A DNA stretch of 64,000 nucleotides from a plasmid: assembly GCF_054482595.1 (NCBI RefSeq), contig NZ_JBTHVH010000001.1; one strand, given 5' to 3'. The position numbers and the translations under genes were made by a program. The notes below the pieces were generated by a model. That model worked only from the letters and a program-made list of their open reading frames with translations. It searched no databases and was not told the DNA's origin. This document shows positions 18,439 through 63,294 of the stretch, piece by piece. Every line of letters starts with the position of its first letter. Positions within the stretch are counted from its first letter, which is position 1.

Positions 18439-18462
18439 AGACGCCGCTCGCGTCTTTTTTTT
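18439..18462 (+). terminator. terminator-like hairpin inside the ant leader
   Basis: agacgc cgctc gcgtct followed by T7 run. Confidence 0.45.
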
Positions 18463-18479
18463 GTATCGGCGTACACGCA

Positions 18480-18600: not shown

Positions 18601-18627
18601 ATACCAACGTCTAAGGAGGCTGCCAAT

Positions 18628-18849: not shown

Positions 18850-19964
18850 GAACATCGTTAGTTACCCGTGAAGAGATGATCGAGGCAATTGAACAGCACA
18901 CTGCCTGTATCAGTACCAGGGATATACCAGGCGTTATTGCCAACTACTTCATGATCACCAAACAACTTTACCGGAGAAAGGACAAGAACGCGGTTCACCG
19001 TATCCTGTTGTCTGATATCCGCGAATACCTGCTCGAACAGGGTCATCTGAATTACGCAACCGTCGCAGCCGAATCACGCAAGGAGGCACACAGAATGAAA
19101 GCAACTAACGTTAAATCAGAAAAAATTCATGCACCTTCAGTTCAGGAATCGGAGCTGGTGGTTGTTCAGAATCAGTCTGATGAAATTCCCGTTCTGGAAT
19201 GGCAGGGAGTGCGTGTAGTGACAACCGAGACTCTTGCTAGAGGGTATGGGACAGAAACAATCCGTATTCGCCAAAATCATCATGAGAACAAAGTACGCTT
19301 TGTTGAAGGGAAGCACTTTTTCAAAGTTGAAGGAGAATCATTGCGCGAGTTGAAGCACAGAGTAGCTTTAAACTACTCTGTAAAAATTGCTCGCAATGTT
19401 CGCTCACTCACCCTCTGGACAGAACGCGGCGCAGCCCGCCACGCTAAAATGCTCGAAACCGATCAGGCATGGGCATTCTTTGAAAAACTGGAAGACAGCT
19501 ACTTCCGACAAAAAGAACAGCAACCGATCGCAATCCCCCAAACATTACCAGAAGCCCTACGCCTGGCTGCCGAACTGGCTGAACAAAAGCAGCTTCTGGA
19601 ACAGAAAGCCCACCAGCTAAATCAGCAGCTGGTGGCCGCCGCTCCTAAGGTCGATTTTGCCGACCGGGTATCAGTAGCTAAAGGGATCCTGATTGGGAAT
19701 TTTGCAAAGGTTGTTGGACTTAAGCAAAACGCGCTGTTTGTCTGGTTACGGGAGAACGGCATCCTGATAGCGTCCGGTGGACGTAAAAATGTGCCGTTCC
19801 AGCAGTACATCAACGCGGGGTATTTCACGGTGAAAGAAGTGGTGCTGGATGATGAAGATGGCTACCAGATACGGTTGACGCCTCAATTAACGGGTAAAGG
19901 CCAGCAGTGGTTGACGCGTAAACTGCTCGATGCTGGCTTGTTAAAACCGGTGGCGGCTGAATAA
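18846..19964 (+). CDS. ant: antirepressor (central Rha/ORF6N-like domain, C-terminal KilAC-like domain)
   Basis: 372 aa; C-terminal FADRVSVAKGILIGNFAKVVGLKQNALF resembles KilAC/Ant C-terminal domain. Confidence 0.75.
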   Translation: MRTSLVTREEMIEAIEQHTACISTRDIPGVIANYFMITKQLYRRKDKNAVHRILLSDIREYLLEQGHLNYATVAAESRKEAHRMKATNVKSEKIHAPSVQESELVVVQNQSDEIPVLEWQGVRVVTTETLARGYGTETIRIRQNHHENKVRFVEGKHFFKVEGESLRELKHRVALNYSVKIARNVRSLTLWTERGAARHAKMLETDQAWAFFEKLEDSYFRQKEQQPIAIPQTLPEALRLAAELAEQKQLLEQKAHQLNQQLVAAAPKVDFADRVSVAKGILIGNFAKVVGLKQNALFVWLRENGILIASGGRKNVPFQQYINAGYFTVKEVVLDDEDGYQIRLTPQLTGKGQQWLTRKLLDAGLLKPVAAE

Positions 19965-19968
19965 TGGA

Positions 19969-19990
19969 AGAATGCCCGGTTGATGCCGGG
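19969..19990. terminator. palindromic hairpin between convergent ant and c1
   Basis: atgcccgg ttgatg ccgggcat perfect inverted repeat. Confidence 0.45.
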
Positions 19991-19996
19991 CATAAT

Positions 19997-20848
19997 TTAT
20001 TGCGCGCTTTCGGGGTTGTCGTTTACTGGCTGCCCCTTCTTGGTTTTACGGCTGCGCGTAACTGATGCGGCTGACTTAACCTTTTTCTCTTCGCGAGTGA
20101 TGGCAATTTGTTTTTTTACATTTTCAATATCTGCCAGGCGATATATTTTTGCTTGCGGCCAGCGGTCGCAGATGATCGGTTCTATGGAGTCATAAAGGCT
20201 AAATTTTGCTTTTTCGAATTCACCGTTGATGATAATTCCATCACGGAGAGTTTCATCGCAGATAAACACGCCACACAGTGGCACATGGTAACTAACTGAT
20301 TTACCATCATTGTAGTTAGGGCTACTGGAAATGTAGTGGACGCGCAGCATTGTTTCGCTAAAGCCGTGTACGCGCATACGGAATTTTTCATCCTCCGGGT
20401 ACTGCCTCATTAGCTCTTTTGTTGCTTCCAGGTTCTCTATGTATTTCGCACTGTGCTCATTGATCCCCGCGCTTTTTTGGATGCGAATGTCCTTATCAAT
20501 CAGATGAATAATGCGGCCAGCGGTCATGTTGACGCTGTTCACAGCTTCTGTCTGATAAGTTGTAACCTTGCGCACACCGCGAAGGATGTTAGGCACTGGA
20601 TATAAAATAGTCTTTGGGATATTGAGGTCTGGGTACTGTTCCAGTTCCCGCGCCATTAAAGTCCATTTATCAATTTCAGCCTGAATGCTGTCTGTTTCTT
20701 TGAACGGTAGAACGACAACCGGGCGTACAGGACGACCGTCGCTGGCGGCATCAACGTGTTGGGCGCGTGCAACAGCTTTTTTTAGAAAGAGATCCCTGAA
20801 GCTGACGAACTCCTGGTACAGTTGTTCGCCGTAGACATAATTTATCAT
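19997..20848 (-). CDS. c1: C1 master repressor
   Basis: 283 aa MINYVYGEQLYQEFVSFRDLF... matches recalled P1 C1. Confidence 0.9.
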   Translation of the reverse strand: MINYVYGEQLYQEFVSFRDLFLKKAVARAQHVDAASDGRPVRPVVVLPFKETDSIQAEIDKWTLMARELEQYPDLNIPKTILYPVPNILRGVRKVTTYQTEAVNSVNMTAGRIIHLIDKDIRIQKSAGINEHSAKYIENLEATKELMRQYPEDEKFRMRVHGFSETMLRVHYISSSPNYNDGKSVSYHVPLCGVFICDETLRDGIIINGEFEKAKFSLYDSIEPIICDRWPQAKIYRLADIENVKKQIAITREEKKVKSAASVTRSRKTKKGQPVNDNPESAQ

Positions 20849-20942
20849 TGATCCTCCTCCAGAATTGACATGGTCAATAACGCCCGGCTGAGAAAACCGG
20901 TCATTACTGACCTATATTATAGAGGGATCAAACAAAAATAAT

Positions 20943-20959
20943 AGATTTATTAGTGCATT
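20943..20959 (-). promoter_or_regulatory. weak C1 operator-like site
   Basis: agatttattagtgcatt, about 13/17 to reverse-complemented consensus. Confidence 0.35.
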
Positions 20960-21168
20960 TATTGTGAGTCTAACTGGTTAGTTGTCATGAGATATTCGAT
21001 TGTGTCAGTGAGGTCATCCAGGTCGTCTTGGGTGATGCGGTACTCCTGATTGGATATCTTTGAGTAGTGTTCAGCAATGGCGCGGGCAGCGTCGGTTTCG
21101 GCAGGGTCTACAGATAAAGCGTTAGAGCAATGTCTAACGTCGTCGATGGTTGGTTGAATGAAAGCCAT
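20959..21168 (-). CDS. coi: C1 inactivator
   Basis: 69-aa ORF directly upstream of c1 on same strand. Confidence 0.8.
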   Translation of the reverse strand: MAFIQPTIDDVRHCSNALSVDPAETDAARAIAEHYSKISNQEYRITQDDLDDLTDTIEYLMTTNQLDSQ

Positions 21169-21406
21169 AATTATGCCTCACTGTATTGACAACACAGAGC
21201 CCGAAGCTCTGACCTACTGTTTCACCCATGATCCATGCTGGGGTAATCTAACAACATTGCGCTGTGTGTAAGATGAGCAATGCATAGCTGTAATGCCGTT
21301 GTATAAGGTTTCCCTGTTTGCTCATTTCCTTCTGAGCCGCTCTACAACGCTGAAGACACATTAAATAGTGAATCCAAAGTCGTATTACGTAACGGCGGCA
21401 AAACTA

Positions 21407-21423
21407 TAATTTATTAGAGCAAT
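21407..21423 (-). promoter_or_regulatory. C1 operator (immC cluster)
   Basis: taatttattagagcaat, near-perfect reverse-complement of consensus. Confidence 0.6.
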
Positions 21424-21489
21424 TGTCAAACAACTATGAAAAACAATCCAGTTTTTAGCTGGTGGAGTGGGATTTTTCTCTCAAAATTT

Positions 21490-21506
21490 ATTGCTCTAAT
21501 AATTCT
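21490..21506 (+). promoter_or_regulatory. C1 operator (immC cluster)
   Basis: ATTGCTCTAATAATTCT. Confidence 0.65.
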
Positions 21507-21549
21507 TGATTTTTATGCGCAGCTGGACGTAAACTCCTCTTCGGATCTA

Positions 21550-21583
21550 ATAACTTCGTATAGCATACATTATACGAAGTTAT
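21550..21583 (+). other. loxP: loxP recombination site
   Basis: Exact ATAACTTCGTATA-GCATACAT-TATACGAAGTTAT. Confidence 0.98.
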
Positions 21584-21772
21584 ATTAAGGGTTATTGAAT
21601 ATGATCAATTTACCTGTAAATCCATACAGTTCAATACTGTAGCAGGTCAAATAGTGACCACTTGATCATTTGATCAAGGTTGCGCTACGTAAAATCTGTG
21701 AAAAATTGGCGGTGTTAGTCCTACAGATTTCGCGTAGCGCACTTAGCACCACCAATCAATCAGAGGTGAAAA

Positions 21773-21994
21773 ATGGGATATTCAACTGCTAAAGTGTCCA
21801 CTCATCTTGAGCTTGAGAAAAACCGTGGTTACTGGCGGGCAAAAGGGTTTGATCGTGATAGTTGCCAACTGTCATTATCGCGCGGTGAAGAGAAAATAGA
21901 ACGCACGCGCGGTCGCTGGCGTTTCTATGACGAGAACCATAAACAGGTAAAGGCAGAGCCGATCCTGTACACTTTACTTAAAACCATTATCTGA
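21773..21994 (+). CDS. hypothetical small ORF between loxP and cre (73 aa)
   Basis: GAGGTG SD upstream of ATG; may be chance ORF in cre promoter region. Confidence 0.3.
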   Translation: MGYSTAKVSTHLELEKNRGYWRAKGFDRDSCQLSLSRGEEKIERTRGRWRFYDENHKQVKAEPILYTLLKTII

Positions 21995-22001
21995 GTGTTA
22001 A

Positions 22002-23033
22002 ATGTCCAATTTACTGACCGTACACCAAAATTTGCCTGCATTACCGGTCGATGCAACGAGTGATGAGGTTCGCAAGAACCTGATGGACATGTTCAGGGAT
22101 CGCCAGGCGTTTTCTGAGCATACCTGGAAAATGCTTCTGTCCGTTTGCCGGTCGTGGGCGGCATGGTGCAAGTTGAATAACCGGAAATGGTTTCCCGCAG
22201 AACCTGAAGATGTTCGCGATTATCTTCTATATCTTCAGGCGCGCGGTCTGGCAGTAAAAACTATCCAGCAACATTTGGGCCAGCTAAACATGCTTCATCG
22301 TCGGTCCGGGCTGCCACGACCAAGTGACAGCAATGCTGTTTCACTGGTTATGCGGCGGATCCGAAAAGAAAACGTTGATGCCGGTGAACGTGCAAAACAG
22401 GCTCTAGCGTTCGAACGCACTGATTTCGACCAGGTTCGTTCACTCATGGAAAATAGCGATCGCTGCCAGGATATACGTAATCTGGCATTTCTGGGGATTG
22501 CTTATAACACCCTGTTACGTATAGCCGAAATTGCCAGGATCAGGGTTAAAGATATCTCACGTACTGACGGTGGGAGAATGTTAATCCATATTGGCAGAAC
22601 GAAAACGCTGGTTAGCACCGCAGGTGTAGAGAAGGCACTTAGCCTGGGGGTAACTAAACTAGTCGAGCGATGGATTTCTGTCTCTGGTGTGGCTGATGAT
22701 CCGAATAACTACTTGTTTTGCCGTGTCAGAAAAAATGGCGTAGCTGCGCCATCTGCCACCAGCCAGCTATCAACTCGCGCCCTGGAAGGGATTTTTGAAG
22801 CAACTCATCGATTGATTTACGGCGCTAAGGATGACTCTGGTCAGAGATACCTGGCCTGGTCTGGACACAGTGCCCGTGTCGGAGCCGCGCGAGATATGGC
22901 CCGCGCCGGAGTTTCAATACCGGAGATCATGCAAGCTGGTGGCTGGACCAACGTAAATATTGTCATGAACTATATCCGTAACCTGGATAGTGAAACAGGG
23001 GCAATGGTGCGCCTGCTGGAAGATGGCGATTAG
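22002..23033 (+). CDS. cre: Cre tyrosine recombinase
   Basis: 343-aa protein recognised as P1 Cre across its length. Confidence 0.98.
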   Translation: MSNLLTVHQNLPALPVDATSDEVRKNLMDMFRDRQAFSEHTWKMLLSVCRSWAAWCKLNNRKWFPAEPEDVRDYLLYLQARGLAVKTIQQHLGQLNMLHRRSGLPRPSDSNAVSLVMRRIRKENVDAGERAKQALAFERTDFDQVRSLMENSDRCQDIRNLAFLGIAYNTLLRIAEIARIRVKDISRTDGGRMLIHIGRTKTLVSTAGVEKALSLGVTKLVERWISVSGVADDPNNYLFCRVRKNGVAAPSATSQLSTRALEGIFEATHRLIYGAKDDSGQRYLAWSGHSARVGAARDMARAGVSIPEIMQAGGWTNVNIVMNYIRNLDSETGAMVRLLEDGD

Positions 23034-23050
23034 CCATTAACGCGTAAATG

Positions 23051-23067
23051 ATTGCTCTAATTCTTTG
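23051..23067 (+). promoter_or_regulatory. C1 operator-like site downstream of cre
   Basis: ATTGCTCTAATTCTTTG. Confidence 0.55.
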
Positions 23068-23083
23068 ATATTTATGGCGACAT

Positions 23084-23395
23084 ATGAGAAAGAATTTCAA
23101 CATCGACGGAAAATATGTAGTGCTGTCAGTGAGCACTAATATTCAGTCGCCAGCCGTCATTGTCACTGTAAAGCTGAGCGATAGAATGCCTGATATTGAC
23201 TCAATATCCGTTGCGTTCCCTGTCAGAAGTATGCGTAGTGCTGAACATTTCGTGATGAATGCCACCGAGGAAGAAGCACGGCGCGGTTTTGCTAAAGTGA
23301 TGTCTGAGTTTGGCGAATTTTTGGGGCACGTTGACAAAGCCCTCTCAATCAGTTCAGCAAGATCCAAAGCATTAACAGCTTCCATGATGAAATAA
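23084..23395 (+). CDS. hypothetical protein (103 aa), cre-adjacent
   Basis: ORF preceded by operator-like site. Confidence 0.5.
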   Translation: MRKNFNIDGKYVVLSVSTNIQSPAVIVTVKLSDRMPDIDSISVAFPVRSMRSAEHFVMNATEEEARRGFAKVMSEFGEFLGHVDKALSISSARSKALTASMMK

Positions 23396-23396
23396 A

Positions 23397-23420
23397 AAAA
23401 GCCTGGCAAGGAGCCAGGCT
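23397..23420 (-). terminator. terminator-like hairpin (minus-strand U-tract)
   Basis: gcctggc aagga gccaggc with A-run on plus strand (T-run on minus). Confidence 0.4.
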
Positions 23421-23526
23421 GCACAAAAGAGCGGGTTTGTATTCCGCATCCAATCAATCAAGAAGGAGTATAGCACACAGGTACTGACGTGAAAAAATAT
23501 GATTCGCGATAAACAAAATACCTATC

Positions 23527-23543
23527 ATTGCTCTAATTGAGCC
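23527..23543 (+). promoter_or_regulatory. C1 operator-like site
   Basis: ATTGCTCTAATTGAGCC. Confidence 0.45.
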
Positions 23544-23623
23544 GCAGTTTTTGTCAACTACGAAGACGTGGCCATTACCTACTCCTTTGAAATCATTGGC
23601 GACCATTAGGCCGCCTTTTTTAA

Positions 23624-24676
23624 TCATTCAGCCGCCACCGGTTTTAACAAGCCAGCATCAAGTAGCTTGCGAGTCAACCACTGCTGGCCTTTACCCGTTA
23701 ATTGGGGCGTCAGCCGTATCTGGTAGCCATTTTCATCATCCAGCACCACTTCTTTCACCGTGAAATACCCGGCGTTGATGTACTGTTGGCGCGGTACGTT
23801 TTTGCGCGCACCAAAAGCCATGAGAATGCCGTTCTGGCGCAACCATGAGAAAAGGGCGTTTTGCTTCAGTCCAACGACCTTTGCAAAGTTCCCGATCAGG
23901 ATTCCATTAGCCACTGATACCCGAACGGCAAAATCGACTTTAGGGGCTGCGGCCACCAGCTGCTGATTTAGCTGGTGGGCTTTCTGTTCCAGAAGTTGCT
24001 TTTGTTCAGCCAGCTCGGCAGCCAGGCGCAGAGCTTCGGGGAGTGTTTGGGGGAGCACTGGAGAAGCAGTGTTAGCCTGCTGCAATTCCTCCAGTTTGTC
24101 GATCAGCGAACGGCGGACCGCTTTTGACTCGCGCGCGGCAACTCGCAGGGCTTGTTTGTAGGTCATGGAGATAGTTTCAGATGTTGTGTTGTTTAATTTT
24201 TGCACTACGAAAATTTCGTAGTACTCACCATCCAGTTCATCCTTAACTCTGGCAATAAAATCATTATTGCGAACTGGTTTTTCGCTGCATAATTTCCGCG
24301 CTTCATTGACCATCTTCAACAATGTTTGGCTGTCTATTGTGTCGCCGCTGTTGGGGATAACATTCACGGCTGGTGCAGTTGTTCCCAAAGACTTCGTAAC
24401 TACAGCGTCTGGTTTGCTTGCTTTCATTCTGTGTGCCTCCTTGCGTGTTTCGGCTGCGACGGTTGCGTAATTCAGATGCCCCTGTTCGAGCAGGTATTCA
24501 CGGATATCGGTTAGCAGAATGCGGTGAACCGCGTGTTTGTCCTTTCTCCGGTAAAGTTGTTTGGTGATCATGAAGTAGTTGGCAATAACGCCTGGTATAT
24601 CCCTGGTACTGATACAGGCAGTGTGCTGTTCAATTGCCTCGATCATCTCTTCACGGGTGACTAATGACGTTCTCAT
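23624..24676 (-). CDS. antirepressor paralog with alternative central domain
   Basis: 350 aa; first ~85 aa and last ~110 aa nearly identical to 18846..19964 product, middle unrelated. Confidence 0.7.
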   Translation of the reverse strand: MRTSLVTREEMIEAIEQHTACISTRDIPGVIANYFMITKQLYRRKDKHAVHRILLTDIREYLLEQGHLNYATVAAETRKEAHRMKASKPDAVVTKSLGTTAPAVNVIPNSGDTIDSQTLLKMVNEARKLCSEKPVRNNDFIARVKDELDGEYYEIFVVQKLNNTTSETISMTYKQALRVAARESKAVRRSLIDKLEELQQANTASPVLPQTLPEALRLAAELAEQKQLLEQKAHQLNQQLVAAAPKVDFAVRVSVANGILIGNFAKVVGLKQNALFSWLRQNGILMAFGARKNVPRQQYINAGYFTVKEVVLDDENGYQIRLTPQLTGKGQQWLTRKLLDAGLLKPVAAE

Positions 24677-24894
24677 AGTCCCTCCTGAGCAGAAGCGTTA
24701 ACAGGGAGGCACCAGTAACTGAGAGAATTGCGCAAATCGGTAGAAAAGCGGGCAGAGAAAATACAGGGAGCATCCGGAAGCTGAGAACGTGCCTCATCTT
24801 CTGTTGGTGCGATAACGAAGTGATAGTGACGTTTCTGGCAGGAGTAAAAGCGCCAGATAAATTCAGGGCGTGCGCAAGGATTGGCATTAACCAT
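24673..24894 (-). CDS. Icd-like small protein, second copy (73 aa)
   Basis: Same architecture as 18628..18849; differs in first ~10 residues. Confidence 0.55.
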   Translation of the reverse strand: MVNANPCARPEFIWRFYSCQKRHYHFVIAPTEDEARSQLPDAPCIFSARFSTDLRNSLSYWCLPVNASAQEGL

Positions 24895-24899
24895 AGTTA

Positions 24900-25205
24900 C
24901 GGCCTCATGTACAGGTTTAACAACCTGCTATCCGCTGCTAAACGGGTGGCAGGACGTGACGGGGTTAGCAGACTGGCGTACATGAAACCAGCAGGCCGAA
25001 GCCTCCCCATCACGCCCCACCATAATTCGGGCGTAACGTGGTTTTACGGACACAAAAATACCGCAATATCGGATATCTGCGGTTGTCCGCATGTACATTC
25101 AGGCTGCTAAACCCGGTCGCAGAATTTGCTACGACGGCGGAACTATAAGCCTGAATGACAGGAAGATCAATAGTCTGGCGTTCAATGGTAGTATTTTTGC
25201 TCCAA
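24900..25205 (-). ncRNA. candidate c4-like antisense RNA region of second module (boundaries not resolved)
   Basis: Leader between operator and icd-like ORF; UUCG-loop hairpin gaggcttcggcct; sequence unrelated to forward-copy leader. Confidence 0.2.
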
Positions 25206-48906: not shown

Positions 48907-49041
48907 ATGCTAATAGGCTATGTACGCGTATCAACAAATGAACAAAACACTGCTTTACAACGAAACGCTCTTGAAAGCGCAGGATGTGAGCTAATTTTTG
49001 AGGACAAGGCGAGTGGAAAAAAGGCTGAACGACCAGAGTGA
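48907..49041 (+). pseudogene. cin: truncated cin-like serine invertase (first ~44 codons only)
   Basis: [44 protein letters not shown]-stop matches Hin/Gin/Cin N-terminus with catalytic Ser; no resolvase core or HTH follows. Confidence 0.7.
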
Positions 49042-49214
49042 AAAAGGCTTTTGATAGGTAAACTCTGGTCGTATGAAAGTTAAATTTGCGTGGGTGCAGC
49101 ATGCGCTCACTCTTGAGGCATGAACGGTAATCATCTGATAACTTGTAGCTCGATTATCCGGACGCACTGGAACCAGTCGATGCTTCCAGCGATCCAGATA
49201 TTTCATTAAATGGA

Positions 49215-49625
49215 CTACGCCTCCGGGAACGCTGGCCAATTGACATCTGGTGCAGTGCTGGTATCCGTTGCGGTCACCGCATCGATATAATCCAGCACAG
49301 CGTTAAGACGGGTGGTTTCAGCCTGCGTAAGATTCCGCCCGGCCTGTAATTTCAGTTGAATAAGACTAATGGAAGCCATTGCGGTATCAATCAGCGACTG
49401 TTTTTTCTGTTCAGCGTCAGCTACCAGTTCATCATGAGAACGTTCCGGAGTGGGTGGCGCAGTAAATCCCCCGTCTGAATACACCCAGCCGATTCCGGGC
49501 TGCTCACTGATATCAGAAATATTAATGAGCTGCTGATTATCCGGCACTGTGAATTCAGCCTCGCCATCCCAGACAATGACATTCACAACCATCCCATTTT
49601 CAATAACTGCATATGATGTATTCAT
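49215..49625 (-). CDS. tail fibre assembly chaperone (U/Tfa-like)
   Basis: 136-aa ORF with TAATG overlap to tail fibre stop. Confidence 0.65.
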   Translation of the reverse strand: MNTSYAVIENGMVVNVIVWDGEAEFTVPDNQQLINISDISEQPGIGWVYSDGGFTAPPTPERSHDELVADAEQKKQSLIDTAMASISLIQLKLQAGRNLTQAETTRLNAVLDYIDAVTATDTSTAPDVNWPAFPEA

Positions 49626-52600
49626 TATGCAAACTCCTCGATAATACAAATCCCTGCAGCGCCTTTCCCGCCCGTCATACTGGTTCCGCTATAACCGGCA
49701 TCGTATGCACCACCGCCGCCCGAACCATATGCCCGACCGATAACGCCACCGCCAGCGCCTGCGCGACCACCGCCCCCCCAGAACGATGATCCTCCTTCAC
49801 CACTGACGCTGATATTTCCGGACTGACCGTCACCTCCATGCCCACCAATAATGCGGACATCACCAGTATTCGGCGCGCCTCCATTACCACCGTTCGTGTT
49901 TGTGACTCCTACTTTCCCGCCGCCTTCACCGCCAGGGGCTATTACCGTTCCGAACGAGCTATCACCGCCCTTGAGGCCGTTCGTCGCACCAACACCGCCG
50001 CCCCCACCTGCGCCGATAGTGACTGGATAACTATTCTGTGTCGGGGTCATTATTGAAATTATTGTCCCACCGGCCCCACCGCCAGCACCGAAAAACGTCT
50101 CGTTATTGGATGTAGCCTGGCAGCCACCACCTCCGCCACCGCCGCCCGTAATTGTGACCCTGATTCGTTTTGTTCCTGGCGTCGGGGTATACGTACCTGA
50201 TGAAGTGAAAACCCGGGTATTCACCAAACGCCCAACATATCCGCTTGAATCGCTCAGGCCAAGGTTAGCAGCAGTTAAAGTAATATTTGCAGAACCATCA
50301 AACTTAACACCGTTGATAGTGCGTGCAGTCTGTAGTTTCGTTGCGGTTGCGGCATTACCGGTAGTGCTCTGATTACCTGCTTTATTCACGCCCGGCAGGT
50401 CGATATTGGCACTACCATCGAATGACACTCCGCCTATTGTGCGTGCTGTTTGCAGTTTTGTTGCAGTTGCAGCATTGCCGGTAGTGCTCTGATTACCTGT
50501 TTTATTCACGCCCGGCAGGTCGATATTGGCACTACCATCAAATGACACCCCGCCGATTGTGCGTACTGTTTGCAGTTTCGTAGCGGTTGCAGCATTGCCG
50601 TTCAAACTACCATTGATGCCGCCAGTAACATTGAGTCCATTACCGATCGTAACAGTACCATTGGCATTGTTAATGATAAGCGGCCTTAAATTATTATAGG
50701 TTCCCAGGCTGTTACCCGAATTGGTCAACATGAAATATGTGTTTGAACCATCGTTTCGGATAAAGAATCCGTAGTTTCCGTAGGCAATGCGCAGACCATT
50801 CGCCGATTTTGAAATGATCTCACCAGTAGCCGTTAAACCGCCGTTGAGATTTCCTCCGGTTATTGGTAATGCGCCGACATCCGTGGCGGTCGGTTTAATG
50901 TGCGAACTGTAAATTACATATACAGTTCCATCTGTCAGGCCTGTTGGTTTATTCGCTGTATAAGATGGTGATGTATGAATCGTTACGCTGGCGTTACTGG
51001 TATAATCCCACTGAATATTAACACGTGTGGTGTAATTACCTATTTCAACATAAACATCATAGGTATCACCGGATGTATTCACCCATGCAAAATTAGTAAA
51101 TCCAACCGATGTCCGTCGCCATAACGCACCAGTAAGACCTTTTGGATTCCCATTTCCCGCACGAAGAACAAGTTCAGATATACCAGCCTGCATAGGGGAG
51201 TTAACATTATATCCAGAACCACCAATCAGGCTTATGTAAACCACGGAACTGGACTGTGGCATGGTTACAGTTGCCAGCTTGAACCATCCAGTACCACCAC
51301 TAAAAGACATTGTTGTTGAGTTGATCGTGCCTATAGACCTTGGAGTTAGCTCAATGTTTTTAGAACCGTCAAACAACACCCCATTTATAGTTCTAGCGGT
51401 TTGTAACTTGGTCGCTGTCGCTGCATTACCGGATGTATTCTGATTACCCGCAACGTTAACACCAGGTAAATTAATATTCGCAGTACCATCAAAGCTAACT
51501 CCGCCGATAGTTCTTGCCGTCTGTAGTTTTGTAGCAGTTGCCGCATTGCCAGTTGTATTCTGATTGCCAGTGGCATTCACACCAGGAATGGAGTCCCTTG
51601 ATGTATATACCTGCGCCCACGCTGACCATGCCGCATCAGTGTGATCTCTTCGGGAGCGAATGAAAACCGGCGCATGTGCACCGCTCGTACCACTCCAGCC
51701 AATAAGCAACTCGCCCTCACCAGCAGCACTCGCACCTTTCATGTGCAATACGTTGCCATACGCGGTCGGGTAGCTATTGTTGTACGCCTCATACATCTGC
51801 AATCCAGTAGAAGCACCTTGTGTTGTATCGGTGAGCGCAGTAACACGCCCTCTGGACGCAATTGTTGGTATCGAAATGTTCGCAGAACCATCAAACTTAA
51901 CACCGTTGATTGTGCGTGCTGTTTGCAGTTTTGTTGCAGTTGCGGCATTACCGGTAGTGCTCTGATTACCTGCTTTATTCACGCCCGGCAGGTCGATATT
52001 GGCACTACCATCAAATGACACCCCGCCGATTGTGCGTACTGTTTGCAGTTTCGTAGCGGTTGCAGCATTGCCGGTAGTGCTCTGATTACCTGCTTTATTC
52101 ACGCCCGGCAGGTCGATATTGGCACTACCATCGAACGACACTCCGCCGATTGTGCGTGCTGTTTGCAGTTTTGTGGCGGTGGATGCATTACCTGTCAAAG
52201 ATCCACTAAGAGCCACGGCACTAAGAGACTTAACACTTACATCCTGACCCCATCCGGAAACAACAACCTGACTCCACGCTGTCCAGTTTCCATTAACAAC
52301 AAAGCGAACGTATATACGTTTTGTGTCGCTGTTAATCAGCGTTTGCATGTTCGCATAATCTGATCCCGTAGTCTTACGAATCGACTCTACACGAACCAAA
52401 AAGTTACCGCTTACGCCGTCAGGCTTATTGGTAATATTTGCACCACCTGCGACAGTTTTGCATTGATAGTATTTAACGGATCCAGCTTCTGTATTAGCAA
52501 TAATCAAGTCGTTTAAATCAATAGCCCGGCCGTCAATGGCTTCCGGCTCGATGGCTCCTGCTATCCCGGCACTGAATGTAGCAGCGGCTGAAAACGCTGT

Positions 52601-54139
52601 CTTACCTTTGAAAGTCTGTTGAGAACTCCAGGTATTAGCTGTGCTCAACAGGGGGATCTTTTCGCCGCTGGTTCCGATTTCTCTTAAACCAAGGTATTGG
52701 ATAACAGCCAGTGTGCTTGTTTTAGCCAGGATATCGCGACCGACTGACGTTAAATCAGTCTGGGAAACAGTGTCTGTACCGGTAAAGTACGGCAATTTAT
52801 TTGCGCCTGTCGCAAGACCAGCAAGCGCGGTTAAAGTTGCATCCAGAGGCTGTTTGCCTGCCAGCGCATTTGTCATTGTTGTCGCAAAGTTCGGGTCATT
52901 GCCCAGTGCTGCTGCAAGCTCATTCAGGGTATCAAGAGCTTCAGGTGATGAGCCGACCAATGCAGAGATAGCAGCTCTTACATAAGCGGTCGTAGCAATC
53001 TGCGTGTTATTCGTACCCTGTGCAGCGGTAGGCGCAGTAGGTATTCCCGTTAATGCAGGACTTGCTAAAGGAGCTTTAAGAGCCAGAGCATTGTTGATAG
53101 TTGTGCTGAAATTCGGGTCGTTATTGATCGCAGCAGCTATTTCTTTAAGCGTATCCAGTGTGCCAGGTGCACCGTTGATAAGTGCCGTTACAGCTGCCTT
53201 AACAAAGGCTGTATTTGCGATCTGCGTGCTGTTTGTACCTTGCGCTGCCGTCGGCGCGGTTGGCGTTCCTGTCAGACTCGGGCTTTCTATTGGCGCTTTG
53301 GTATCAGCCAGCTCTTTTACAGACTTAACGGCTTTAGGGGTAGCCGCCATTGTTTCGCTGTCGCTGTTAGTTGCGCTACTGAGCTGAACTAATCCCTTTT
53401 GTGTTGTGCTTGCATCCTGCGCCGTATACTTGCTTTTAGCCAGATCGTAGGCTTTTTTAACCGCCAGCGAACTTGCAGCGACATCACTTCTGGTACTGGT
53501 TACAGAGTCGGAAATTTCAATGCCTATCGCGAGATCGATGCGGTCGGATACATCTATCATTTCCTTAGTAATAGCAGATACGCCAGCAGGGATATTCACC
53601 GTACAAACAAGCAGTTCCCCATCTCCTAACTGATATGAATCGGTATAGGTTCTGGCAACAAATTCAGCCGCATGAATATGTGACGCGGTATTAACCTGAT
53701 AAGAATCTTCTCCAAGGAGGTATCTTCCCTTCAGCACAATTGCATATTTCTTACCTGCGCTAAGTGCAAGAGAAATATCCTTACGCTGCTGAATAGTTAC
53801 CTGGTAGAATTCACCAATATTCACTGACGCCGCGCCAGCGGTTTTATCACCATCCACTGAGGTGATTAACAGGTTCATCCCACCGCCAGGCTTAGGAAAA
53901 AAACCGGCATAAAATCCAGGGTCAACAATTCCCCTGAATTTTCGGTTTAGCGCGGCTGACAGATATGGTTCGTGGTATTGCACATCAGCCACCAGAGCCA
54001 ACGACTCGGGTGATGGGTAAGTAACCGATGTGACAACTGTAACGTCATTCATCAAGCATATCCTTATGCTGTAGTCGTGTTTATGGCCATAACTGCGGTA
54101 TATGTTTTGCCCACATACAGCGAGTCTTCCTGGACACAA
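49625..54139 (-). CDS. tail fibre protein (S-like), repeat-rich shaft and Gly-rich C-terminal domain
   Basis: 1504 aa; ~38-aa repeats GNQSTTGNAATATKLQTARTIGGVSFDGSANIDLPGVN; followed by Tfa gene. Confidence 0.8.
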   Translation of the reverse strand: MCPGRLAVCGQNIYRSYGHKHDYSIRICLMNDVTVVTSVTYPSPESLALVADVQYHEPYLSAALNRKFRGIVDPGFYAGFFPKPGGGMNLLITSVDGDKTAGAASVNIGEFYQVTIQQRKDISLALSAGKKYAIVLKGRYLLGEDSYQVNTASHIHAAEFVARTYTDSYQLGDGELLVCTVNIPAGVSAITKEMIDVSDRIDLAIGIEISDSVTSTRSDVAASSLAVKKAYDLAKSKYTAQDASTTQKGLVQLSSATNSDSETMAATPKAVKSVKELADTKAPIESPSLTGTPTAPTAAQGTNSTQIANTAFVKAAVTALINGAPGTLDTLKEIAAAINNDPNFSTTINNALALKAPLASPALTGIPTAPTAAQGTNNTQIATTAYVRAAISALVGSSPEALDTLNELAAALGNDPNFATTMTNALAGKQPLDATLTALAGLATGANKLPYFTGTDTVSQTDLTSVGRDILAKTSTLAVIQYLGLREIGTSGEKIPLLSTANTWSSQQTFKGKTAFSAAATFSAGIAGAIEPEAIDGRAIDLNDLIIANTEAGSVKYYQCKTVAGGANITNKPDGVSGNFLVRVESIRKTTGSDYANMQTLINSDTKRIYVRFVVNGNWTAWSQVVVSGWGQDVSVKSLSAVALSGSLTGNASTATKLQTARTIGGVSFDGSANIDLPGVNKAGNQSTTGNAATATKLQTVRTIGGVSFDGSANIDLPGVNKAGNQSTTGNAATATKLQTARTINGVKFDGSANISIPTIASRGRVTALTDTTQGASTGLQMYEAYNNSYPTAYGNVLHMKGASAAGEGELLIGWSGTSGAHAPVFIRSRRDHTDAAWSAWAQVYTSRDSIPGVNATGNQNTTGNAATATKLQTARTIGGVSFDGTANINLPGVNVAGNQNTSGNAATATKLQTARTINGVLFDGSKNIELTPRSIGTINSTTMSFSGGTGWFKLATVTMPQSSSVVYISLIGGSGYNVNSPMQAGISELVLRAGNGNPKGLTGALWRRTSVGFTNFAWVNTSGDTYDVYVEIGNYTTRVNIQWDYTSNASVTIHTSPSYTANKPTGLTDGTVYVIYSSHIKPTATDVGALPITGGNLNGGLTATGEIISKSANGLRIAYGNYGFFIRNDGSNTYFMLTNSGNSLGTYNNLRPLIINNANGTVTIGNGLNVTGGINGSLNGNAATATKLQTVRTIGGVSFDGSANIDLPGVNKTGNQSTTGNAATATKLQTARTIGGVSFDGSANIDLPGVNKAGNQSTTGNAATATKLQTARTINGVKFDGSANITLTAANLGLSDSSGYVGRLVNTRVFTSSGTYTPTPGTKRIRVTITGGGGGGGGCQATSNNETFFGAGGGAGGTIISIMTPTQNSYPVTIGAGGGGGVGATNGLKGGDSSFGTVIAPGGEGGGKVGVTNTNGGNGGAPNTGDVRIIGGHGGDGQSGNISVSGEGGSSFWGGGGRAGAGGGVIGRAYGSGGGGAYDAGYSGTSMTGGKGAAGICIIEEFA
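50240..52200. repeat. three clusters of ~114-bp near-identical direct repeats inside the tail fibre gene
   Basis: gcattaccggtagtgctctgattacctgctttattcacgcccggcaggtcgatattggcactaccatc recurs around 50350, 50470, 51940, 52060, variant around 51420. Confidence 0.6.
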
Positions 54140-56846: not shown

Positions 56847-57202
56847 AGCACCACGTCCTGTGTGATAGTTATATCCCTGATACGAATGGATATTTTCAAC
56901 TTATCAAAAGCATCTCCCTCGGCTACTGACAAGCCAGAAATCGGTATGTCAGGTAAATCTACCGTCAGTTTTTGCAACAGCATTGCCTCAACCGCAATTT
57001 GAACATGCGACAAGTTGGTCGGTTCGTGTTTAAACTGCGGTAAAACATTGCCCCATGACGGATCTCCGTATACCTCACCCTGATAAGTGTTTAGCCACTC
57101 ATATAAACGAGCGCCCCAGGCCTCCTCCTGGGACTCATACGTTTTTACGCCGGATAACTCCAGCGTCAGCAAAGGATCAATTTCGTTATTGTTGGCCATC
57201 AA
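56843..57202 (-). CDS. baseplate wedge (gp25/W-like) protein
   Basis: 119-aa ORF between sit and baseplate J-like gene. Confidence 0.4.
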   Translation of the reverse strand: MMANNNEIDPLLTLELSGVKTYESQEEAWGARLYEWLNTYQGEVYGDPSWGNVLPQFKHEPTNLSHVQIAVEAMLLQKLTVDLPDIPISGLSVAEGDAFDKLKISIRIRDITITQDVVL

Positions 57203-60200
57203 TCAACTCTCGCGTAGTCATTCATCAACGGATCATCAATTGACAGTGGTACCGTGCGCATAACGCCCGGCTGAGGCGTGCTGACCTTTACGACAGTTCC
57301 CTGGCCTTTCGCCGAGTCTTTGGTGTGCTCTTCAATCCTGGCAAGCAATGAGGTCATCTGCGCAAACAGCCGCTTCGTTTCACCATCAAGTGAAACGGTA
57401 TTATCAGCCAACTGCATTGTCGGCTTGGCACCGGAACCGCCAAGGTCACTAATAACCTGCCCGTCTATCTGCATACGACCGGTTGGTTGCTGCAAATCGT
57501 TGGCGGCAGTCGTCACCTTGGACGTGGAGGCTGGTTCAGGCGCATTATTTTTCCGCATCCCCGGCGAGTTGCGGAGTTTATCGAATAGTCCATCAATCCC
57601 CATTTGTGCGCCGAGTTGGTCAAAGTAACTTGAGTTGCTGGCCACCGGACGCGCCTCTTCAACTGGCATCGGAATATCAACATACACATTGCCAGCTGCT
57701 GTTGCGGTCCCCTTCCCTCGTGCACGTTCTTCGAGCGTTCCCTGAACGACTTCCCGACGCATACCCCGGCCATTCATGAATTTGTTGACCAGATCGTTAA
57801 CGCCAACAGCATTGCCGATTTTGTCTACCAGACCGCCTTTCTCAAACGGGCTATCACCAGGGGTAAACGCCAGGCCAGTAGACTGATCGATAACAGCGTT
57901 ATCAGGCAGTGGTCCCCTCACTCCATATTGCGCCCCACCCTGTGCTCCTGCTCCAGGTGTATAGATTTCACCACCTAAATAGCGAGCACGATGAGTATTG
58001 ACCTTGATCGCGTACTCACGGTTTTCTTTCGATAAGTCACCTGTGCCTTTTTTCCACTTATTGATAGTGCCAAACCCAGCGTTATATGCAGTGATGGCCT
58101 CGTTTAAGTCTCCATTGGCTTGCTTCAGATACTTGCTCATGAGAAGAGCCGCAGCTTCTGCCGATTTCACAGGATCAAACGATTCACCTTCAGCTAAGCC
58201 AGTCTCTTCACGAGCAATCCCCGTGAACTGAAACATTCCCAGAGCACCGGTTTGGGATTTTGCATACGGATTACCACCAGATTCAGTTGCAGCAATCGCG
58301 TAAAGAGTGCCTTCTGGAAGACCATATTTATTCTCTAGTTCAGCAAAATACGGAGCCAACTTATCGAGATTTGCCTTACCTTCAGATCCAAGACTTCCGA
58401 CTTTTACATCCAAGCGGCCATTGTTGTAGGTATCCGCAGCTTTCTGAATGTCACTCCTGGTGCCAGTGGTATTAAGCGACGATGATGACGAGCTATTTTG
58501 ACCAATAGCTTTATCAATTTTCTGCAACGCGCTATTGCCCGTTTCTACGGCATTTGCATTGATAATCTGATTCGCAGTTTCTTTAACTGTTTTATTGCTA
58601 TCTTTCGCCGTGTCCAGTGCCGCATTTATCACGCGGGTAACAATATTAGTCTGTTTGGCATCGGATTCAGTTTTAGAATCAGATGTCTCCTGGTGGCTAT
58701 TAACCGGAGCTTTTAACTCTGGAGTGATTTCTTTGGCATTAGCCTCGCTATTAACCGGAGCTTTTAACTGTGGAGCGATTTCTTTCGCATTAGCCTCGCT
58801 ATTAACCGGAGCTTTTAACTCTGGAGTGATTTCTTTCGCATTAGCCTCGCCGATCGGATTGGGTATTTTTGATACAATCATTGCCGCAGGGGTATTTTTA
58901 ACGGCATCAACCGCTGCATCTAATGCTTTACCAGGTAAATTTTTAACCCCATCCCAAATATTACCAGCCGCCTCTTTAATGTGTTTCCCTGGGTTCTTAA
59001 TGAAATCAATTGCACTATCAATTGCATCACTGAAAACCTGTTTCAGGTTATCAACAGTAAAGAAGTCTTTGATGGCATCCAGCTTTTCAAGCAGCTTATT
59101 AGATGTATCGCTAAACCATGCTGAAACAGCATCACCAATCTTTGCTGTGTAATCTTCGAACTTGGTAGAAATGGTGTCGCCAAGGTTAGAAATATATGTT
59201 TCTAAGTTGGTAATCCCACTATCAATGGCCTGGGCAATACTTTCCGTCGAAAATGATTGCAACATATTGCCGATATCCTCAAATCCAAGTGATTTGAGAA
59301 CCTCACCAATGGCGCTGCTAATACCAGATACCAGTCCCCCCATATCAAGAACATTGGCTAACGTATAAGCGGCTTTTTGCTGGAATGATGGATCTTGTCC
59401 TGATTTAAGCCCAAACGCTCGACGTTGCGCTTCTGTATCATTCCAACCGGTTACCGCATCATAAATACCTCCAGCCACTGTGCCGACTAAGGGAATTGCG
59501 CGTAACGCCCCTTTACCAACTGCCTTTAATCCAAGTTTACCTGCTGCCCGGGCAGCCAAATCTCCACCTTCATGGGCGATAGTCTTCTTGCCACCACCGC
59601 GTAGCATTCCTACAAGTTTCTTTGCCCCCAGAGCGCCAAAAGCGAGTGCTCCAGCTTTTTTCAGCATGCCACGCCCCATTAACAACGACGCGACGCCACC
59701 GGCCCCCTTCCCTAACAGGCTAAATAGTTTGGACAGCAAGCCGCCCTTCTTTTTCCCGGTGTTTTTGGCTATCTGATCAAGGGCGCTGAGAATCTTGTCA
59801 TTGCCCTCTTTAATTTCGCTGGTCTGCTCCTGAAGTTCCTGAACTGTCCGTTTTTGGGTGTTAACCTGAACGACATCGGCACTATTTTGCGATTTACGCC
59901 TAAAAAAACCTTTTCTACGGCTGTTATCGTCATTGCCACGAATCACATCGGCAATAGACTTTCTGGCACCATTAAGCGATCCACCAACTTCTTTTGATAT
60001 CCCGCCAAGCTCCTTCCCTGCTGCCCACAATGGACCAGCAACGGCATAACCTAACGCATCAACGGCACGAGTCTCTGAAGGGTTACCTATGCCTTCAGCT
60101 ACTTTTGACAGTTTTTTTAATAAACCTGATTCAGCATTTAGACGCTCATCATCCTCTTTACGCCTGGCCTTTTCAGCACGTTCAGCACGGGCATCTTCCG

Positions 60201-60990
60201 CTGCGGCCTTACTCCCTGACTTTCCAATAAAACGACCACGCGCATCGCGTTGGTTTTGGCTTTTTTGCGCACCGCCTTTTTGATCGAACATTTCGCGAGC
60301 GTGTTCGGCTGCTTCGGTCCGTTGTGCCTTTATATCCTCTGGTATAGCCTTCCTGCGTCGTTTTTTACCCTTTGGTGTAGTTGATTTGGCCTGCTGTTCC
60401 TGTTGAGCAATGCCCTCCTGAACTACACGAGAAACGTCCCCTAAATTAAGCCGTTTCATTGCGTCAACAATAGGGTCTACTGATGGCGCATTGGCCACAA
60501 AGTCTGGCCGGGAATTTTCGATTGTTCGATTTAATGCCGACACACTGCGAGATACTGGGTCAACCGTTGCAACGCGTTCCCCTTTCAAATCACGAGCGAG
60601 TTTAACCGTTTCTAACCGCTGTGCTTTAACATCCTCTGTTATTGCCTCTCTTCGTCTATTTGGGGGATTGTGCGCTGTTGGTGCAGCCTGCTGTGCACGG
60701 TTAGTGACTTTGTCCTCCCGTATACGAGAAACGTCCCCTAAATTAAGCCGTTTTATTGCGTCAACAATAGGGTCCACTGATGGCGCATTGGTCACAAAGT
60801 CAGGACGTGAATTTTCGATTGTGCGATTTAATGCCGACACACTGCGAGAGACAGGATCAACAGTTGCAACTCGTTCCCCTTTCAAATCTTCAACAGCTTC
60901 CCGAATACCTGCAAGCTCTTCCAGCTCTTTCGCGCTGGCGGTTTCAACTGTCCTTATAACATCGTCAATATTGGCGTTTTTTCTTTCCAT
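57199..60990 (-). CDS. sit: injection transglycosylase / tape-measure-like protein with SLT domain
   Basis: 1263 aa; lytic transglycosylase motif YAIAATESGGNPYAKSQTGALGMFQFT; internal tandem repeats. Confidence 0.7.
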   Translation of the reverse strand: MERKNANIDDVIRTVETASAKELEELAGIREAVEDLKGERVATVDPVSRSVSALNRTIENSRPDFVTNAPSVDPIVDAIKRLNLGDVSRIREDKVTNRAQQAAPTAHNPPNRRREAITEDVKAQRLETVKLARDLKGERVATVDPVSRSVSALNRTIENSRPDFVANAPSVDPIVDAMKRLNLGDVSRVVQEGIAQQEQQAKSTTPKGKKRRRKAIPEDIKAQRTEAAEHAREMFDQKGGAQKSQNQRDARGRFIGKSGSKAAAEDARAERAEKARRKEDDERLNAESGLLKKLSKVAEGIGNPSETRAVDALGYAVAGPLWAAGKELGGISKEVGGSLNGARKSIADVIRGNDDNSRRKGFFRRKSQNSADVVQVNTQKRTVQELQEQTSEIKEGNDKILSALDQIAKNTGKKKGGLLSKLFSLLGKGAGGVASLLMGRGMLKKAGALAFGALGAKKLVGMLRGGGKKTIAHEGGDLAARAAGKLGLKAVGKGALRAIPLVGTVAGGIYDAVTGWNDTEAQRRAFGLKSGQDPSFQQKAAYTLANVLDMGGLVSGISSAIGEVLKSLGFEDIGNMLQSFSTESIAQAIDSGITNLETYISNLGDTISTKFEDYTAKIGDAVSAWFSDTSNKLLEKLDAIKDFFTVDNLKQVFSDAIDSAIDFIKNPGKHIKEAAGNIWDGVKNLPGKALDAAVDAVKNTPAAMIVSKIPNPIGEANAKEITPELKAPVNSEANAKEIAPQLKAPVNSEANAKEITPELKAPVNSHQETSDSKTESDAKQTNIVTRVINAALDTAKDSNKTVKETANQIINANAVETGNSALQKIDKAIGQNSSSSSSLNTTGTRSDIQKAADTYNNGRLDVKVGSLGSEGKANLDKLAPYFAELENKYGLPEGTLYAIAATESGGNPYAKSQTGALGMFQFTGIAREETGLAEGESFDPVKSAEAAALLMSKYLKQANGDLNEAITAYNAGFGTINKWKKGTGDLSKENREYAIKVNTHRARYLGGEIYTPGAGAQGGAQYGVRGPLPDNAVIDQSTGLAFTPGDSPFEKGGLVDKIGNAVGVNDLVNKFMNGRGMRREVVQGTLEERARGKGTATAAGNVYVDIPMPVEEARPVASNSSYFDQLGAQMGIDGLFDKLRNSPGMRKNNAPEPASTSKVTTAANDLQQPTGRMQIDGQVISDLGGSGAKPTMQLADNTVSLDGETKRLFAQMTSLLARIEEHTKDSAKGQGTVVKVSTPQPGVMRTVPLSIDDPLMNDYARVD

Positions 60991-61071: not shown

Positions 61072-61953
61072 TCAGCGTCCTGAATCGGTATACCCCCATA
61101 CAAAACCAGGTTGGACACTAAGGTCTGATAGCTTTTCAATCCCCACCTGTGGAATGAAGTCGGTAGCCCGAAAGGGCACCCACAGACGGGTATATGCACC
61201 CTCTGTGGACTCCTTTTTATCCTGATTTGGGCATTTATGCGGCGGGAGACGAAGACGCATTTCACCTTTATCGATGTAGCACGGTAAACCATGTTCGAGC
61301 TTTTCATGAGCCAGTCGGATGTGTGCCGCCAGCTTCATAAATTCAGTATCAATGGCCATCCGTTTAATCGTTTCATAACGACGCTCAGCCTGATCTTCAC
61401 GAGTACCGCTAACATCGTTATAAAGCTCACACTGATAAGCGAATTCCCAAAAACGCAAATCAACGATCGCTTCTTTGAATTCCGCGTCGTCTTCAGCTGG
61501 CAATGCTGCACGGCGCATCTCCAGCATTTCCATTGCCCAACCATCAAGCGGCACGATACGCCATTGATAAGGTACTCCCTCTACAGACACCTCAATATCG
61601 TCAATGAAAGGTTCCACTTCCAGGACCTGGATATCTTCAGCCAGAGCATTCATATCGCAATCGTAATAATGCTCTTTACCGCAATGTTTACAGGTGTAGG
61701 TGAATGTCTCGACCGGTGTTTCACGGGAGCCGGTAAATATCCACCATAACGCGGTAATCCGGTCCTGCGCCGTCCATGTCAGGGGATCATGTTTCGCGGG
61801 TTCAGCCAGCAAGGCTTTTAAATACGCCGTTGTCTGTTGTTCTTGTTCCTCCGGTGTTATCGAGTTGAAACGCATCGCATCAGCAATATTTGGCTGACGG
61901 AACTGGATCAATTCAGTTGGCCGCGATGGTAGCGGGAAAAGGGGTAAAAGCAT
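61072..61953 (-). CDS. hypothetical tail-module protein (293 aa), full-length copy
   Basis: ORF downstream of tail-tube-like gene. Confidence 0.5.
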   Translation of the reverse strand: MLLPLFPLPSRPTELIQFRQPNIADAMRFNSITPEEQEQQTTAYLKALLAEPAKHDPLTWTAQDRITALWWIFTGSRETPVETFTYTCKHCGKEHYYDCDMNALAEDIQVLEVEPFIDDIEVSVEGVPYQWRIVPLDGWAMEMLEMRRAALPAEDDAEFKEAIVDLRFWEFAYQCELYNDVSGTREDQAERRYETIKRMAIDTEFMKLAAHIRLAHEKLEHGLPCYIDKGEMRLRLPPHKCPNQDKKESTEGAYTRLWVPFRATDFIPQVGIEKLSDLSVQPGFVWGYTDSGR

Positions 61954-62589: not shown

Positions 62590-63294
62590 TCACTTCAACA
62601 TGGATGAGAAAAGAACAATCCCCGGGATAATTGCCCTTGTTGCGCTCATTTTCTCTTCCATGTGTGCCGCCAGCTTCATAAATTCAGTATCAATGGCCAT
62701 CCGTTTAATCGTTTCATAACGACGCTCAGCCTGATCTTCACGAGTACCGCTAACATCGTTATAAAGCTCACACTGATAAGCGAATTCCCAAAAACGCAAA
62801 TCAACGATCGCTTCTTTGAATTCCGCGTCGTCTTCAGCTGGCAATGCTGCACGGCGCATCTCCAGCATTTCCATTGCCCAACCATCAAGCGGCACGATAC
62901 GCCATTGATAAGGTACTCCCTCTACAGACACCTCAATATCGTCAATGAAAGGTTCCACTTCCAGGACCTGGATATCTTCAGCCAGAGCATTCATATCGCA
63001 ATCGTAATAATGCTCTTTACCGCAATGTTTACAGGTGTAGGTGAATGTCTCGACCGGTGTTTCACGGGAGCCGGTAAATATCCACCATAACGCGGTAATC
63101 CGGTCCTGCGCCGTCCATGTCAGGGGATCATGTTTCGCGGGTTCAGCCAGCAAGGCTTTTAAATACGCCGTTGTCTGTTGTTCTTGTTCCTCCGGTGTTA
63201 TCGAGTTGAAACGCATCGCATCAGCAATATTTGGCTGACGGAACTGGATCAATTCAGTTGGCCGCGATGGTAGCGGGAAAAGGGGTAAAAGCAT
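62590..63294 (-). pseudogene. chimeric truncated duplicate of 61072..61953 gene created at duplication junction
   Basis: First ~212 codons identical to the 293-aa gene, then 22 unrelated codons read from the repeat-unit end. Confidence 0.5.

Follow-up and report, generated by a model that had tools for sequence, protein, structure and literature searches.

The fibre protein of a group of P1-like phage-plasmids varies naturally in length among Escherichia coli strains, through the gain and loss of whole copies of a repeat unit of 40 amino acids (aa). The gene in question lies in a stretch of 64,000 nucleotides (nt), hereafter the window, from contig NZ_JBTHVH010000001.1 (RefSeq assembly GCF_054482595.1). 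The window belongs to a P1-like E. coli phage-plasmid, and over this gene, a homolog of the P1 tail fibre gene S, its closest matches are NZ_CP097097.1 and NZ_CP073955.1 (99.9% each). Our reading is that the units are modules of the fibre shaft, that they are gained and lost in frame under the control of DNA homology, and that their conserved cores serve as crossover points at which fibre parts are exchanged; we put the probability of this whole account at about 80%.

Anatomy of the three repeat arrays

An earlier note, made from the letters of the window, had described three clusters with at least seven copies of a unit of about 114 bp (38 aa) in the shaft part of the S-like gene. Alignment of the copies in register along the protein confirmed the clusters and gave eight units, distributed 3+2+3 over three arrays, A, B and C, all within the gene. 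The outer limits of these arrays (50240-52192) nearly equal the span that had been claimed (50240-52200). The unit itself turned out to be longer than stated, measuring exactly 40 aa or 120 nt. In the order in which they are translated, the features are as follows:

49625-54052, minus strand: S-like tail fibre gene, intact, 1475 aa from its ATG (MNDVTVV...); from analysis of the open reading frames (ORFs)
51833-52192, minus strand: array A, 3 units; from Tandem Repeats Finder, repeat search and protein register
52073-52192, minus strand: unit A1; from protein register
51953-52072, minus strand: unit A2; from protein register
51833-51952, minus strand: unit A3, unit-like in its first 81 nt alone (51872-51952); from protein register
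51311-51550, minus strand: array B, 2 units; from protein register
51431-51550, minus strand: unit B1; from protein register
51311-51430, minus strand: unit B2; from protein register
50240-50599, minus strand: array C, 3 units; from Tandem Repeats Finder, repeat search and protein register
50480-50599, minus strand: unit C1; from protein register
50360-50479, minus strand: unit C2; from protein register
50240-50359, minus strand: unit C3, unit-like over its first ~81 nt and then running into the tip; from protein register

The repeat is far above chance expectation. Tandem Repeats Finder reported a period of 120 at 50315-50600 (2.4 copies, 89% matches, score 474) and again at 51887-52192 (2.5 copies, 87% matches, score 479), and array B was missed in this run. 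The repeat search of the window grouped the copies into one family, with start-to-start distances of 120, 120, 951, 402, 120 and 120. In all three arrays the units stand head-to-tail with a period of exactly 120 nt, a multiple of 3.

The very high nucleotide identity that had been ascribed to the clusters holds for A1, A2, C1 and C2, which are 91-99% identical as DNA (A2 and C1 share 119 of 120 positions, and A1 and A2 differ at 10 sites), but not for array B, whose units resemble the others at 83-88% as protein and at 54-72% as DNA. In A3, B2 and C3, with which the arrays end, the match to the remaining units covers just the first ~27 aa (81 nt), beyond which a different domain follows. The suggestion that the repeats explain the many antisense ORFs of this region did not hold: none of the antisense frames is free of stops within the arrays, and the longest stretches that are open in antisense, which do not exceed 399 nt, occur both inside the arrays and elsewhere.

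Unit number among natural relatives

Comparison of copy number among P1-like relatives, the check proposed for these repeats, revealed variation and not invariance. The 120 best homologs of the S-like protein have lengths of 1394/5, 1434/5, 1474/5, 1514/5 and 1555 aa, which form a 40-aa ladder. We describe each architecture as (A,B,C), the unit counts per array, and counted units in the 118 homologs with the three-array layout: array A has 1-4 units and array C 2-5, and array B has 2 in 117 homologs and 3 in one. Stripping the internal units left 99 distinct protein backbones, eight of which each occur with two to four architectures. At least 14 separate copy-number changes on identical protein backbones were found in this way. 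Many of the differences between backbones are probably recombinational.

Two allelic series document these changes at the DNA level. The first consists of records L009 (2,2,2), L005 (3,2,3), L008 (4,2,3) and L010 (4,2,2), and the second of L013 (3,2,3), L012 (3,2,4) and the equal pair L011 and L014 (3,2,5). Both series show 0 mismatches in the remainder of the 4.2-4.7-kb gene and in 1.4 kb of each flank, and the gaps are exclusively 120 nt or multiples of it (120, 240 and 360 nt). That alleles without a mismatch elsewhere differ by 120-nt indels bears out the proposal that the repeats are substrates for changes of length. The added units are 120/120 copies of their neighbor (A2 A2, or three identical units in C), and the units that were lost are internal ones. 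In L015-L017 the four-unit C arrays are composed of units that have since diverged, and expansions can therefore persist.

The variation extends to complete-plasmid and complete-genome records, which contain six architectures: (3,2,3) in L001, L005 and L006, (3,2,2) in L002, (2,2,3) in L003, (4,2,3) in L008, (3,2,5) in L014 and (3,2,4) in L015-L017. NZ_CP116167.1, CP103706.1 and NZ_JBSWBB010000003.1 are members of the RefSeq complete-genome set.

Variability follows DNA homology and not protein similarity. The longest exact run shared by neighboring units is 60 nt in A (A1/A2), 39 nt in C (C1/C2) and 8 nt in B (B1/B2); A and C vary, and B has kept two units in 117 of the 118 homologs. Such a dependence would be expected of misaligned homologous pairing between direct repeats. 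We propose that the long exact runs in A and C allow neighboring units to pair out of register, with unequal exchange between sisters or plasmids, or replication slippage, as the candidate routes. Whole units would thereby be gained or lost, each step lengthening or shortening the chain by 40 aa and leaving the allele in frame because the period is 120 nt. The fibre in the virion would presumably become longer or shorter with them.

The 40-aa unit as a probable shaft module and proposed point of exchange

Around the arrays, the S-like protein contains these parts:

52605-54052, minus strand: constant N-terminal part (Sc), 94-96% identical as DNA to S of P1 and P7; P1 homology stops at 52605
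51587-51871, minus strand: globular "knob", inserted in the third array-A unit after FDGSANIS; from sequence register, with AlphaFold pLDDT (predicted local distance difference test) of 70-83
51551-51586, minus strand: displaced unit tail PGVNATGNQNTT, directly after the knob; from sequence register
50672-50920, minus strand: Gp34_trimer-like domain, in the 237-aa segment that separates arrays B and C; Pfam PF21446, 2.5e-28
49637-50203, minus strand: glycine-rich C-terminal domain, the presumed receptor-binding tip; Pfam PF21722 Gly_rich_2, 1.9e-10

The consensus of the unit is GNAATATKLQTARTIGGVSFDGSANIxLPGVNxxGNQxTT. Scans of the array alone against Pfam and NCBIfam gave no significant family match. 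One candidate, the Phage_fiber_2 repeat (PF03406), was rejected: the array alone is not matched by it, and the PF03406 matches of the S-like protein fall in Sc, the best Pfam stretch being residues 215-254. The unit is nonetheless widespread. It is present in 26 PHROG families, nearly all of them tail proteins, and in 96 phage records, among them those of coliphages, cyanophages and Acinetobacter T4-like phages, and the unit-containing region matches 5154 protein clusters (at 50% identity). Among the best 150 of these 5154 clusters, 121 of 133 unit spacings measure 40 aa, and the longest arrays have 6 units.

What this unit builds is suggested by a capsid protein. Searched against the PDB, the unit profile found a sole sequence match, the C-terminus of the phage L protein Dec (6e3c, residues 98-134, E 1.5e-5). 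In the Dec monomer that part is unfolded; in the trimer it becomes a three-stranded spike, which was modelled as a beta-helix on T4 gp34 (PMC6449081). In a phmmer search of the C-terminal 991 aa of the S-like protein against the PDB, nothing was found for the arrays, and the Gp34_trimer-like domain alone was matched (Mu tail fiber protein S, 5yvq, and T4 gp34). An AlphaFold monomer of array A, knob and array B had a mean pLDDT of 51, with the arrays below 50 and the knob as listed above, which is in line with a fold that depends on the trimer but is no proof of it. Foldseek on this monomer model returned weak matches (E 0.02-0.1) to the R1/R2 pyocin fibre and T4 gp34 in which the knob was involved, a hint that the knob may be a domain of the pyocin/gp34 type. 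The unit itself is most likely a module that depends on trimerization, tandem copies of which would build an intertwined, trimeric, beta-structured stretch of the distal shaft.

The globular parts of the fibre are inserted into the unit at one fixed point, after FDGSxNI and before PGVN..GNQ..TT of the unit, and the insert differs between proteins. In the window, the knob follows A3, a Gp34-like segment follows B2 and the tip follows C3, all at this position. P1 S and S' are built in this way too, each with two single units around the same knob. In the model we favor, knob, Gp34-like domain and glycine-rich tip would hang on the last unit of each array, and the conserved unit cores would double as crossover points, both between the arrays and between different fibre genes. 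Crossovers at the cores could exchange units between A and C, delete the knob, and attach different tips and upstream parts.

Traces of each kind of exchange were found among the relatives. C1 of the window is 1 nt away from A2, and the unit at the C1 position of L005 is 10 nt away from A2; in some other alleles the second unit of A is of the C type. Homolog P0118 has no knob, and its arrays A and B are fused. Homology to many relatives stops within C3 or C2 (query ends 3701-3858, corresponding to 50282-50439 of the window) or starts at A1 (query starts 407-426, window 52180-52199). The cassette running from A through knob, B and Gp34-like segment to C is joined to other tips in L003 and L018, and in L018 also to another N-terminal part. 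These traces agree with the accepted view, drawn from T-even phages, that fibre genes exchange parts at conserved motifs (PMC3157838).

Gene context, competing explanations and known systems

The assignment of the gene to the S family, made before any comparison, was correct, as judged from the P1 S homology of its N-terminal part and from the order of S, R and the assembly gene. The initial ~1535 nt are 93.9-95% identical as DNA to S of P1 and P7, and a colinear match to P1 (95.8%) spans S to bplA. The ORFs are ordered bplA, 16, R, S, assembly gene and lydC/lydA/lydB/hdf/darA, which is the order of the P1 annotation, and the annotation of a near-identical plasmid shows the same order as the ORFs of the window. 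Note that the mechanical ORF runs from a TTG (49625-54139), and that we took the ATG at 54052 as the real start. Proteins identical to the 1475-aa product exist in public data, deposited as "tail fiber protein". The neighboring features are:

49215-49625, minus strand: predicted tail fibre assembly gene, 136 aa from its ATG, with a 1-nt overlap with the S stop codon; Pfam Caudo_TAP 3.3e-22 and gene calls
48907-49053, plus strand: remnant of the cin invertase gene, residues 1-49 only (49 codons), 92% identical to P1 Cin; from colinear P1 comparison
52682-52701, plus strand: orphan cixR site inside S, 20/20 identical to P1 cixR; from site search

The product of the assembly gene shares only 28-30% identity with P1 U and U', in their C-terminal halves, and its homologs are flagged in RefSeq as partial, with the N-terminus missing. 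In the PLSDB gene table for L001 and L003-L005, the entry for the S gene covers a C-terminal fragment alone ("glycine-rich domain-containing protein") despite the intact ORF, and the annotation of this repeat-rich gene in PLSDB is unreliable. In general, neither short-read assembly nor automatic annotation is to be relied on at the S gene. Close copies of the gene were also seen in chromosome-sized records of 4.8-5.2 Mb (L010, which is VDAV01000001.1, NZ_CM148631.1 and NZ_CP168949.1), which suggests either integrated P1-like elements or assembly joins.

The lineage has indeed lost the cin inversion switch, as had been noticed: cin is reduced to the 49-codon stub, and a single cix site remains. 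Colinear P1 homology ends on the cin side at 49111, and the replacement of the C-segment runs from 52605 to near that position. No second cix-like site (with up to 4 mismatches) was found in the whole 64-kb window, and neither the ORFs nor the P1 comparison revealed an Sv'/U' cassette downstream of S. RefSeq labels cin in the relatives "recombinase family protein, incomplete". The orphan cixR and the cin stub are relics of the inversion system, and truncated cin genes and missing C-segments have already been described in P1-like plasmids (PMC6906374).

One rival idea, which goes back to the earlier note, is that the arrays are a selected device for host-range variation, in which a change in fibre length retunes adsorption and functionally replaces the Cin switch. 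A lineage without inversion-based fibre switching, repeated copy-number change on identical backbones, and arrays that have not decayed to single units and keep old, diverged expansions (a hint at maintenance) all speak for it, as do the duplications in T4 gene 37 that reportedly widen host range (Tetart et al. 1996, listed in PMC3157838). The P1-like phage MH422554.1, however, has tandem unit pairs in S although its invertase gene (561 nt) is intact and it possesses an invertible segment, which weakens the idea that the arrays substitute for the switch. Many unrelated fibres also have arrays of the unit but lack an inversion system, the units sit in the shaft and not in the glycine-rich tip, and one clonal plasmid lineage is invariant over 29 complete genomes. 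In this form we consider the idea unlikely. A version that we find doubtful in a similar way, and would count as rather unlikely, is that of a selected length rheostat in P1-like phage-plasmids that lack tip switching by Cin: frequent in-frame gain and loss (6-10 units per chain) would give standing variation in fibre reach, letting the glycine-rich tip pass O-antigen or capsule of different thickness, and a unit number tuned to the host surface would shape which E. coli lineages these resistance-carrying elements enter. A plausible, though not our favored, explanation is that the units are mainly recombination linkers for swapping fibre modules between phages, their gain and loss being an incidental and largely neutral by-product. 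The homology breakpoints inside array-C units or at the first array-A unit, the cassette with its different tips and N-terminal part, the knob deletion in P0118, the different globular inserts that other proteins carry at the same point of the unit, and the T-even precedent of motif exchange (as presented in PMC3157838) would all follow from it. It is compatible with the account given here and differs solely in which consequence matters; yet one unit per junction would suffice for a linker, and the arrays have 2-5.

Two further explanations concern the units themselves and the records that contain them. Each unit could be a weak glycan-binding site, with copy number setting the avidity for a surface polysaccharide in place of fibre length. 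The authors of the Dec study propose that its C-terminal beta-helix could bind carbohydrate (PMC6449081), and the unit sequence is conserved across very different phages; but the proposal for Dec is itself speculative, and strong conservation fits a structural trimerization motif equally well, which makes this reading very unlikely in our view. That the copy-number differences are assembly artefacts, through collapse or expansion of near-identical units, we hold to be highly improbable. Newly duplicated units are identical, three identical units in a row outlast the k-mer lengths of short reads, and several alleles come from draft contigs. Assembly collapse was nevertheless rejected as a full explanation, as complete assemblies differ among themselves (the six architectures) and larger alleles cannot be produced by it; moreover, several architectures are found on many independent contigs, and the loss of A2 between A1 and A3 is no collapse of identical sequence, given the 10 sites at which A1 and A2 differ.

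Our account of shaft modules that are gained and lost by homology has to accommodate several observations that weigh against it. Draft short-read assemblies can collapse identical units, so that too few units may be counted in some of the smaller alleles (such as L012 and L013). The 29 complete plasmids of the p1_020032 type have one identical match span, and the arrays are therefore stable in at least one clonal lineage. Zero single-nucleotide polymorphisms in ~7 kb fits decades or more of separation, and a very high rate is therefore not proven by the data. Finally, the structural role depends on a distant match to a part of Dec that was modelled and not experimentally resolved.

Other repeats occur in the window. 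Two divergent ANT/KilAC antirepressor paralogs (18846-19964, plus strand, and 23624-24676, minus strand, in the region 18400-24900) lie within inverted repeats (18655-19104 and 24418-24867 at 94%; 19534-19975 and 23613-24054 at 87%), and paralogs and repeats enclose a tyrosine recombinase gene at 22002-23033 (Phage_integrase, 8.9e-33); the region 18400-24900 may represent an immunity region that is either invertible or duplicated. The sit-like transglycosylase gene (ORF 57199-60990, minus strand) has an in-frame tandem repeat of 51 nt (17 aa) at 58696-58850, with 3.0 copies and 95% matches, and no such array was found in the homologous part of MH422554.1 (L019 1-3000); this may be a second length-variable structural gene. 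The same gene contains a direct repeat of 212 nt (84%, 60380-60591 and 60677-60888), and another direct repeat of 300 nt with 100% identity is found at 61319-61618 and 62660-62959, 1341 nt apart.

P1-like phage-plasmids, which are common in E. coli, bring resistance genes with them, and the limits of their host range are poorly understood. The allelic series, identical over ~7 kb (gene and flanks) and differing by 1-3 shaft units, are clean natural material, suited to asking whether the length of the fibre matters for adsorption through O-antigen or capsule. The unit, for its part, is widespread (thousands of protein clusters) and has neither a Pfam or NCBIfam model nor a resolved structure; describing it would help the annotation and the engineering of tail fibres. 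Text searches of the literature, for the motif and for tail fibre repeat copy number, returned no account of the 40-aa unit or of its polymorphism in P1-like elements.

The closest systems by gene context are the invertible segments, Cin and the C-segment of P1, Gin and the G-segment of Mu, and Min of p15B, which share the set of S, assembly gene and cin and, like the arrays, yield alternative fibre forms from one genome. There, a serine invertase acting on paired cix sites swaps two C-terminal halves at a programmed rate, whereas in the window, with its cin stub and orphan cix, the homology-driven variation of repeats alters length and not the identity of the tip. The adenovirus fibre is also trimeric, and the number of its short shaft pseudo-repeats, which differs among types, determines how long it is. 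Its repeat is, however, a 15-residue triple beta-spiral unrelated to our unit in sequence and fold, and its differences are fixed between serotypes, while changes of the kind seen here are recent indels on identical backbones. The phage L protein Dec has one copy of the unit motif (NAETADKLSTARTI...SFDGSANV), in a region that folds in the trimer alone, as a three-stranded spike (PMC6449081); it differs in being a capsid protein with a single copy, where the fibre of the window has arrays. The variable-number tandem repeats of bacterial surface proteins, such as the Legionella intragenic repeats (PMC2639597), resemble the arrays in having units that are a multiple of 3 nt, a copy number that varies between strains, and repeat homology as the driver. 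In our case the repeats stand in a phage-plasmid gene for a structural component of the virion, and units pass between its three separate arrays.

T-even phages already provide precedents for fibre-gene duplication mediated by repeats and for shuffling mediated by motifs. In T4, tandem duplications within gene 37 are reported to widen the host range (Tetart, Repoila, Monod, Krisch 1996, cited in PMC3157838), and recombination takes place at conserved motifs of T-even fibre genes (Tetart, Desplats, Krisch 1998, cited in PMC3157838). In both cases, short in-frame duplications arise in a fibre gene by misaligned recombination, and conserved motifs act as crossover points for the shuffling of modules. 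The T4 duplications reportedly came from laboratory selection, affect the receptor-binding tip and were shown to influence host range, whereas the arrays of the window consist of another sequence motif, lie in the shaft of a P1-like fibre and form a natural allelic ladder known from sequences alone. With its repeat ladder, the S gene adds a new natural case to this known plasticity of tail fibres.

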